Source: Owenia fusiformis | Lineage: Eukaryota | Assembly: GCA_903813345.2 (NCBI GenBank) | Contig: CAIIXF020000001.1 | Coordinates: 2,604,001 to 2,668,000, forward strand | DNA: 64,000 nucleotides | Direction: 5' to 3' | Shown here: positions 1-3,000 of the stretch, one piece after another | How the letters are laid out: each line of letters begins with the position of its first letter | Numbering within the stretch: position 1 is the stretch's first letter | Notes under the pieces: model-generated | Database searches by the model: none | Seen by the model: the letters and a program-made list of their open reading frames with translations, nothing else | What the model was told of the DNA's origin: nothing | Made by a program: the position numbers and the translations under genes

Positions 1-3000
1 CCAGGACGTGAATGTGTCGTAACTGGTTGGGGTACCACTGAAGGTAATGTTGCAATTGTGTTGTAATTGGTTGGGGTACCACTGAAGGTAATATTGCAGT
101 TGTGTTGTAACTGGTTGGGGTACCACTGAAGGTAATGTTGCAATTGTGTTGTAATTGGTTGGGGTACCACTGAAGGTAATATTGCAGTTGTGTTGTAACT
201 GGTTGGGGTACCACTGAAGGTAATATTGCAGTTGTGTTGTAACTGGTTAGGGTACCACTGAAAGTAATGTTGCAGTTGTGTTGTAACTGGTTGGGGTACC
301 ACTGAAGGTAATGTTGCAATTGTGTTGTAATTGGTCGGGGTACCACTGAAGGTAATATTGCAGTTGTGTTGTAACTGGTTGGGGTACCACTGAAGGTAAT
401 ATTGCAGTTGTGTTGTAACTGGTTGGGGTACCACTGAAGGTTATTTTGCAATTGTGTTGTAACTGGTTGGGTTACCACTGAAGGTAATATTGCAGTTGTG
501 TTGTAACTGGTTAGGGTACCACTGAAAGTAATGTTGCAGTTGTGTTGTAACTGGTTGGGGTACCACTGAAGGTAATGTTGCAATTGTGTTGTAATTGGTT
601 GGGGTACCACTGAAGGTAATATTGCAGTTGTGTTGTAACTGGTTGGGGTACCACTGAAGGTAATATTGCAGTTGTGTTGTAACTGGTTGGGGTACCACTG
701 AAGGTTATTTTGCAATTGTGTTGTAACTGGTTGGGGTACCACTGAAGGTAATATTGCAGTTGTGTTGTAACTGGTTAGGGTACCACTGAAAGTAATGTTG
801 CAGTTGTGTTGTAATTGGTTAGGGTACCATAGAAGGTAATTTTGCACTTGTGTTGTAACTGGTTGGGGTACCACTGAAGCTAGTATTGCAGTTGTGTTGT
901 AACTGGTTGGGGTTTGACTGAAGGTAATATTGCAATTGTGTTTTAATTGGTTTGAGTACCACAGAAGGTAATGTTGCAATTGTGTTGTAATTGGTTAGGG
1001 TACCACCGGAGGTAATTTTGCAATTGTGTTGTAAGTGGATGGGGTTTGACTGAAGGTAATATTACAATTGTGTTGTAACTGGTTGGGGTTTGACTGAAGG
1101 TAATATTGCAATTGTGTTGTAATTGGTTAGGGTACCACTGAATGTAATATTGCAATTGTGTTTTAATTGGTTGGGGTACCACAGAAGGTAATATTGCAAT
1201 TTTTTTTAACTGGTTGGAGTACCACTGAATAGTCCATTTGTCATCCCTATACATCCAATAGTGAACCTAGAAATTGTTAAAAGTACGATGTTTTATGGTC
1301 GATTTATGATAATAAGAGTTTTCTGAAGTGATTTAACTGGCTTGGGCAAAAAATTATATAGGCTGATTAGGGAGGGGTGCAATCGTTTAACATGGCGTTG
1401 ACTATTGACTTAGTGTTGGGATACCACCATATACCTGGTATGTTACCATGGTAATAGATACAAAATTTTTCCCCAAAGTTATTTTTTTGGCAACCCAGCT
1501 AAATCACTCCCATAATCCCTAAAGATAGTATTTACACAGAAAAACATCATACTTTTAAATATTTATACGTTCAGAAAATGACAAATGGACTAGAAGGTAA
1601 TGTTGCAATTGTGTTTTAATTGGTTGGGGTACCACTGAAGGTAATGTTGCAATTGTGTTTTAATTGGTTGGGGTACCACAGAAGGTCATGTTGCAATTGT
1701 GTTGTAATTGGTTGGGGTACCACAGAAGGTAATGTTGCAATTGTGTTTTAATTGGTTGGGGTACCACAGAAGGTAATGTTGCAATTGTGTTGTTATTGGT
1801 TGGGGTACCACAGAAGGTAATGTTGCAATTGTGTTTTAATTGGTTGGGGTACCACAGAAGGTAATGTTGCAATTGTGTTGTAATTGGTTGGGGTACCACA
1901 GAAGGTAATGTTACAATTGTGTTTTAATTGGTTGGGGTACCACAGAAGGCAATGTTGCAATTGTGTTTTAATTGGTTGGGGTACCACAGAAGGTAATGTT
2001 GCAATTGTGTTTTAATTGGTTGGGGTACCACAGAAGATAATGTTGCAATTGTGTTGTAATTGGTTGGGGTACCACAGAAGGTAATGTTGCAATTGTGTTG
2101 TAATTGGTTGGGGTACCACTGAAGCTAATATTGCAATTGTGTTTTAATTGGTTGGGGTACCACAGAAGGTAATGTTGCAATTGTGTTTTAATTGGTTGGG
2201 GTACCACAGAAGGTAATGTTGCAATTGTGTTGTAATTGGTTGGGGTACCACAGAAGGTAATGTTGCAATTGTGTTGTAATTGGTTGGGGTACCACTGAGG
2301 GTAATATTGCAATTTTGTTTTAACTGGTTGGGGTACCATTGAAGGTAATGTTGAAACTGTACACAGATTAGTTCAAAGCTACCCACTCTGTCTTTAGTTG
2401 AGTAAAGAATTATATTATAAATATCGCCTACTCTAAAGTAGTACTGTGCTCTTTGATCTTGTAAAGGATAGTACCTGTAGACTAACAATGTACACTTAAT
2501 TTGCCTTGATGATTTAGTCTTTTATGGCCAGTATATGCCATTTGAATGCATGTCCATATATGGTATGGACACATGCACACACAGTGACATAGATGGCGCA
2601 TATATTATGAAATACATTTACCTTCAGAGGGTGGTGCGTCTAGTGATACATTGAAGGAGGTAGATGTCCCAATTATTTCTCGAACTACTTGCAATGCACA
2701 ATATGGCAGCATTACAGATCAGATGATATGTGCAGGGGAACTGCAGGAGGGAGGAAAAGACTCTTGCCAAGTGAGCTTTCCAATGTTGATAGGAACATAC
2801 AATATATTTGATTGTTTGCTGATAATGTGACTCACCAAATATATCATTATAGTATATATTAGTTATTTCAAATAACGATTAACCCTTTCTCGTGTCCAGG
2901 TACATATGCCCTATTTTGTGCAAAATTGGAAGATGTAAACCATGAGTTTAGTTTCCCTGTATATAAGAAATATTTTATTTTATCCAGGGTGATTCTGGTG

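Follow-up and report, generated by a model that had tools for sequence, protein, structure and literature searches.

A 44-bp intronic minisatellite that repeats an exon end and its splice donor in a trypsin/CUB polyprotease gene of the annelid Owenia fusiformis

The DNA analysed here, referred to throughout as the window, is a stretch of 64,000 nucleotides from Owenia fusiformis (GenBank assembly GCA_903813345.2, contig CAIIXF020000001.1, positions 2,604,001 to 2,668,000 of the forward strand) that opens inside a gene for a multi-domain trypsin/CUB polyprotease. The first intron of this gene in the window begins with a tandem array in which the end of the preceding coding exon and the adjoining 5′ splice site (donor) are repeated over and over. 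We propose that the array is a near-neutral intronic minisatellite, born of a tandem duplication over the exon–intron boundary and tolerated since the first donor is the one chosen, and we give this interpretation a probability of about 0.72. A 44-bp segment straddling the boundary, with 31 nt of exon and 13 nt of intron, would have been duplicated in tandem, after which slippage or unequal exchange multiplied it to the present 44 full units and one split unit. The copies lie 3′ of the authentic donor and only the first of them is continuous with the coding exon, so that a spliceosome that prefers the most upstream among equivalent donors would keep the mRNA intact. The other 40 GT-bearing copies would be silent, or would at most give rise to rare transcripts that run into a TAA stop at 64–66 and are degraded, and the array would hence be tolerated and drift as near-neutral DNA.

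Tandem Repeats Finder reports a period-44 array at 13–2360 with a score of 2,356, and its figure of 53.1 copies counts a non-repeat insert as repeat. Matching the array unit by unit to its consensus gives 44 full units of 44 bp, each with 1–7 mismatches and at a constant spacing of exactly 44 bp. Twenty-seven of them form a left block (13–1200, plus strand) and 17 a right block (1610–2357, plus strand), while one extra unit was split by an insertion into a left piece that adjoins the inserted element (1201–1229, plus strand) and a right piece on its other side (1593–1609, plus strand). In the unit, the final 31 nt of the exon (13–43) are followed by the first 13 nt of the intron (44–56), which bears out an earlier note on this DNA, made from the sequence alone, that described the unit as an exon end plus its splice donor. 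The same note counted about 45 tandem donors, about 44 of them after the true one. The array that it saw is real, with 44 full units and one split, but the pseudo-donors 3′ of the authentic donor number 40 and the array is broken by a transposon-like element. The consensus of the array has no further occurrence within the 64-kb window.

Unit 1 (13–56, plus strand) holds the authentic exon–intron boundary and is set apart by a synonymous C at position 18 that no other unit has. Its donor reads AAG/GTAATG, where the slash marks the cut between 43 and 44; the note had placed the true donor at 44, which is the right boundary, and more precisely the last base of the exon is 43 and the intron GT occupies 44–45. 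GT is present at the donor position in 40 of the 44 full units, unit 1 counted, and G/GTAAT in 33 of the 44, and the right piece of the split unit also has a donor-like AAG/GTAATG. A pseudo-acceptor, TTGCAG, stands 32 nt upstream of the next donor in 13 of the 44 units. All 13 are in the left block and the 17 units of the right block are without it, in keeping with the note's remark that many left-hand units contain this motif. Its other reading of the letters, that the first in-frame stop met on reading past donor 1 is the TAA at 64–66, was borne out by translation. Downstream of the array, the unique 3′ part of the intron (2358–2627, plus strand) ends in the acceptor TTACCTTCAG, with the AG at 2626–2627. 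The first three bases of this unique part (TGT, 2358–2360) are identical to the start of the unit, and Tandem Repeats Finder runs the array to 2360; these bases may represent microhomology at the original duplication breakpoint. One DNA contig (depth 7) jumps 2354–2428, the 75 bases directly 3′ of the array, and this may reflect an indel allele or a mis-join of the contig.

Motif and open reading frame (ORF) scans together with Pfam identify the host gene as a plus-strand, multi-domain trypsin/CUB polyprotease that runs to ∼16.7 kb. Five of seven exon translations match Pfam Trypsin (PF00089) at 36.7–60 bits versus a cut-off of 20.6, and the other two match CUB, one of them under its cut-off. 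The exon that leads into the array is cut by the window start, so that its 3′ end is seen at 1–43 (plus strand) as a trypsin-domain sequence with codons over 1–42 followed by the first base of a split codon (phase 1). The part of this exon that recurs in the array encodes the conserved CxxTGWG strand of the Trypsin domain. The next coding exon (2628–2770, plus strand) begins with the AG that completes the split codon as GAG (E), ends in KDSCQ and matches positions 134–177 of the Trypsin profile (E value 5.3e-9). The exon after it (2988–3144, plus strand; Pfam E value 1.7e-14) is joined by RNA reads and ends trypsin domain 1 with the catalytic-serine motif GDSGGP, the His exon of this array-bearing domain being outside the window. 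Trypsin domains 2 and 3 have both AAHC and GDSGG.

A phase-1 intron is found at the identical place in all four trypsin domains of the window, with boundaries GAA G/GTAATG, TCT T/GTGAGT, GAA G/GTTTGG and CAA G/GTGGGT. The tail of the homologous exon of domain 3, TGTGTAGTAACTGGATGGGGATCTGAAG/GT, is nearly identical to the exon part of the array unit, which points to the exon as the ancestral sequence and source, and to the array as the derived copy.

Exon 4111–4359, used as query in a profile-free search of 1.84 billion representatives, returned CAH1799262.1 (P0141), an unnamed product of O. fusiformis with 2,729 amino acids. When aligned by tblastn, this protein is colinear with the window in 15 exon-sized pieces of 70–91% identity, and the gene in the window is most likely a paralog of P0141. 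The translation of 1–42 has 13 of its 14 residues the same as P0141 residues 1224–1237, and exon 2628–2770 is 88% identical to residues 1238–1286. Exactly one P0141 residue separates the stretches that match 1–42 and 2630–2770, in agreement with a join of donor 43/44 to acceptor 2627/2628 through the codon G/AG. The anatomy of the productive join given in the earlier note, from the first donor to 2628 by way of G/AG, is therefore upheld by gap-free colinearity with the paralog. The upstream coding sequence is continuous with unit 1 only. Any later donor adds 44n nt and the stop at 64–66 lies in the added sequence; splicing from later donors is thus predicted to be unproductive.

Transcription was assessed in three stranded RNA runs, with 6–12% of each run read and mapped to 2314–6100, a region that takes in the last unit of the array and lies downstream of donor 1. 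The exons are transcribed on the sense strand at a depth of ∼1–7x. Joints with GT..AG ends connect 2770 to 2988 (7, 1 and 1 reads in the three runs), 3144 to 3302 (4, 1 and 1 reads), 3835 to 4110 (8, 0 and 3 reads) and 4358 to 4691 (0, 0 and 4 reads). The stretch 2441–2567 of the unique intron part has zero RNA depth in all three runs. The host gene is hence transcribed and its downstream exons are correctly spliced.

The insertion that splits the array occupies 1230–1592 (no strand assigned), with the element proper at 1232–1590 (359 bp). A repeat-pair search found an inverted pair, 1230–1244 and 1578–1592, of 15 nt and 100% complementarity with the flanking TA included, and the element itself ends in perfect 13-nt terminal inverted repeats with TA on either side. 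It has internal inverted arms of ∼93 nt with 70% identity, and the longest ORF listed within it (1367–1498) has 43 codons' worth of product, that is, 43 amino acids. Short, non-coding, bounded by terminal inverted repeats and flanked by a TA target-site duplication, 1232–1590 has the anatomy of a TA-target (Tc1/mariner-Stowaway-like) miniature inverted-repeat transposable element (MITE). No second copy of it is present within the 64-kb window.

The units on the two sides of this element have diverged. Units of the left block share a mean pairwise identity of 0.903 and those of the right block one of 0.943, compared with 0.888 for pairs taken across the two blocks, and block-specific variants occupy unit columns 7, 11, 27, 37 and 43, the right block having T at 7, T at 11 and A at 27. 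Both the variants and the identity values fit separate homogenisation of the blocks on either side of the MITE. Within the left block there are also higher-order copies of 264 bp (6 units), of which 277–540 and 541–804 are 99.2% identical and 13–276 and 277–540 are 96.6% identical. Such near-identical blocks suggest recent multi-unit duplications by unequal exchange and, together with the 75-bp skip in one DNA contig, are indirect signs that copy number may vary among individuals. The pseudo-donors show no sign of selection: the donor 9-mer has a pairwise diversity of 0.133, versus 0.090 for the other positions of the unit, and so is not the better conserved part, and GT has been lost at the donor position in 4 full units. 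Turnover of the array fits that of an ordinary, near-neutral minisatellite in which the insertion of a MITE was tolerated.

Structurally, the array can be assigned to a known class, that of minisatellites whose first monomer lies over an exon–intron boundary. It is an intronic head-to-tail array with a unit size within 10–100 bp, the authentic exon end and donor are inside the first monomer, and the donor sequence is repeated downstream. Several human genes contain such arrays, as described by Borensztajn et al. (2006, PMC1557585). Intron 7 (IVS7) of F7 has a variable number tandem repeat of 37 bp in 5–9 copies, the first monomer of which lies over the exon 7–IVS7 boundary. Although the pseudo-sites of F7 can function, splicing takes the most upstream donor alone, which the authors attribute to a 5′-to-3′ oriented selection (PMC1557585). 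In the same source, intron 2 of the interferon-inducible 6-16 gene (IFI6) has 25 pseudo-sites and uses its first three donors, the nearest two pseudo-sites constitutively; IVS13 of CBS has 15–20 repeats, with two pseudo-sites used; and LMNB2 (10–15 repeats of 100 bp) and PDGF intron 4 (16–18 repeats of 81 bp) use the authentic donor only (PMC1557585). The arrangement has therefore already been described in human genes and would not surprise a splicing specialist, and the Owenia array is most likely harmless.

The F7 and Owenia arrays are alike in having a boundary-spanning first monomer, reiterated donors and a host gene for a trypsin-fold serine protease. They differ in that F7 has 5–9 copies of 37 bp with 4 exon bases in the unit, whereas the Owenia array has 44 full units of 44 bp with 31 exon bases and is split by a MITE. 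In F7, moreover, the choice of the most upstream donor has been demonstrated by experiment, whereas in Owenia we infer that donor 1 is used exclusively or almost so. The intron of F7 lies after the exon with the His and not after the GWG strand, and the two arrays would hence be independent events. IFI6 shares the many reiterated donors but uses the nearest two pseudo-sites, whereas use of donor 2 or 3 in Owenia would bring in the stop at 64–66. CBS, LMNB2 and PDGF resemble the Owenia array in that the first monomer spans the boundary, the donor is repeated in the intron and, by the same account, splicing uses hardly any donor, or none at all, besides the authentic one. They differ from it in the length and number of their units and in their host genes, and all are mammalian rather than annelid. 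No case named in PMC1557585 reiterates as many donors as the Owenia array (40 versus at most 25). Searches of an open-access library brought up no donor-reiterating minisatellite of an invertebrate among the papers that they listed. What distinguishes the Owenia array is thus its 40 reiterated donors, the 31-nt exon share of its unit, the MITE inside it and its annelid host.

The earlier note had offered three readings of the array, namely a tunable decoy or nonsense-mediated decay (NMD) switch, a sequence removed by stepwise splicing, and neutral amplification. Nothing in the analysis supports the regulatory ones, and we favour the neutral one because the human precedents in PMC1557585 employ only the first one to three donors. 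Several points nevertheless weigh against it. The precedent is mammalian, so that donor choice in an annelid is argued by analogy. No annotated protein was found for the gene in the window: exon 2630–2770 searched against proteins of 84–2000 amino acids had a best match of 69% identity, and residues 1100–1700 of P0141 searched against proteins of 1500–4776 amino acids had P0141 itself as the only Owenia match. These searches thus supplied no independent model of the array-bearing junction; prediction of the gene may have been upset by this intron, or the model may have a length beyond the ranges searched. Among the joints and loose ends listed for reads on 2314–6100 there is none at 2628, where an exon depth of ∼1–3x is too low for one to show. 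The last unit (bin 2314–2440) has a sense depth of 0.51, 0 and 0.21 in the three runs, equivalent to a few tails of 23–31 nt, and these could be mis-placed exon-1 tails of correctly spliced reads or could reflect real use of a late donor. The pseudo-donors score 7 of 9 against MAG/GTRAGT in 33 of the 44 units, which is the score of the authentic donor, and they outscore the RNA-confirmed donor at 4358 in the same gene (4 of 9); judged by sequence they are competent, not decayed. Furthermore, the donor conservation test is blurred by the concerted evolution of repeats.

Two of these points, the equal consensus match of the pseudo-donors and the unexplained sense depth on the last unit in two of the three runs, would also favour a role of the array as a splice decoy or attenuator, in which pseudo-donors or 32-nt micro-exons that begin after TTGCAG are used appreciably, the resulting transcripts are lost to NMD and the length of the array sets the mRNA yield. 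The TTGCAG motifs of the 13 left-hand units add to the case, since the pyrimidine content upstream of them, 0.45, is as high as at the weakest RNA-confirmed acceptor (3302), although real acceptors range from 0.45 to 0.75 and this crude count separates neither way. So does the use, in human IFI6 and CBS, of the two pseudo-sites nearest the authentic donor, but even these two genes use the first two only and pseudo-sites are silent in F7, LMNB2 and PDGF (PMC1557585). A decoy is further disfavoured by the donor 9-mers, which have no extra conservation and have lost GT in some units, and by the presence of a MITE in the array without apparent consequence. In addition, a joint from the last donor (2344) to 2628 is absent among the joints listed, and the downstream exons are normally spliced. 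We regard such a decoy as unlikely, and as slightly more doubtful again the specific proposal that a measurable share of transcripts arises from later units or contains 32-nt micro-exons and is destroyed by NMD, with the fast-evolving length of the array tuning polyprotease output.

The U1 small nuclear ribonucleoprotein has roles in telescripting and chromatin retention, and its binding at ∼40 sites in the array might guard against premature cleavage and polyadenylation, delay the pre-mRNA or keep it on chromatin, or make the array a local sink for U1. Such a function is favoured solely by how densely consensus-like 5′ splice sites are packed. The donor motif is conserved no more than background, and the other three trypsin domains of the gene in the window, like the paralog, manage without an array at this intron; a U1 function is very improbable. 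Somewhat less probable still is that the array or its copy number is an artefact of assembly. Tandem arrays are error-prone in assemblies and only the last unit is covered by mapped reads, but the differences between units have a pattern, with variants peculiar to each block, higher-order blocks of 6 units and divergence that forms a gradient. The MITE inside has a clean TA duplication, and the 44-bp spacing is exact throughout. The DNA contigs, which read through intron–exon borders without splicing, moreover have ordinary depth over both the right flank and the last unit (12.7 versus 15.6–18.2). There is, finally, an open frame of 331 codons on the minus strand of the left block (2–994), which raises the idea that the array codes for something in antisense. 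This frame is open since the unit is without TTA, CTA and TCA, and the right block does have stops. The peptide would be a repeat of 44-nt period read in three frames, and no antisense reads fall on the bin 2314–2440 (one unit) in the three stranded runs. We rejected this ORF as a by-product of unit composition, and a coding function for it is barely conceivable.

Beyond trypsin domain 1, the remainder of the gene in the window (3302–16744, plus strand) encodes a CUB domain and trypsin 2, then a Thr-rich linker that leads into trypsin 3, and after several CUB domains a last trypsin-like domain with GDFGGP; it stops after NEIL. With several Trypsin domains interleaved with CUB in one polypeptide, the gene resembles S1 proteases of the ovochymase and polyserase (TMPRSS9) type, and the matches of P0141 include proteins named ovochymase-1 (32–42% identity) and others named transmembrane protease serine 9-like. 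It differs from the vertebrate ovochymase and TMPRSS9-type proteins in its identity to them of 30–48%, its Thr-rich linkers, its run of CUB domains and a last domain without the catalytic Ser. In that last domain (16496–16744) GDFGGP replaces the catalytic-serine motif; P0141 has the same replacement at residue 2644, and GDRGGP in another domain. Such protease domains are conserved and probably inactive.

The gene contains other repeats. Inside one exon, an in-frame coding repeat at 6137–6438 (42 bp, 6.2 copies, 94% matches) makes up a Thr/Gln-rich linker between trypsin domains 2 and 3. Another intronic minisatellite lies at 7838–8175, with a 23-bp unit (scored at 66 and 89 bp too) and units that have GTAGGG strings; it starts 2 nt past the donor 7835/7836 of the KDSCQ exon of trypsin domain 3. 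Two intronic stretches, 3965–4091 and 5489–5742, have DNA-contig depths in the thousands, RNA reads from both strands and numerous loose ends and back-joints, and are high-copy interspersed or tandem repeat families. The polyprotease gene has as its neighbour a minus-strand homologue of Patched, the hedgehog receptor, at about 21000–51000, whose 340-amino-acid exon (28655–29677) shares 99% identity with an O. fusiformis protein and 58% with a nemertean Patched.

Arrays that reiterate a donor are natural experiments on how one 5′ splice site is chosen among identical ones. They also bear on annotation, as gene predictors may stumble at such introns: the protein of the gene in the window was not found, while that of its paralog is annotated. 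The Owenia array comes from a spiralian and each of its units brings a stop or a frameshift, and it could reveal whether animals in general choose the upstream donor first. Even with silent pseudo-donors, the array would put the rule that the first donor wins to its most extreme natural test so far, and to its first outside mammals.

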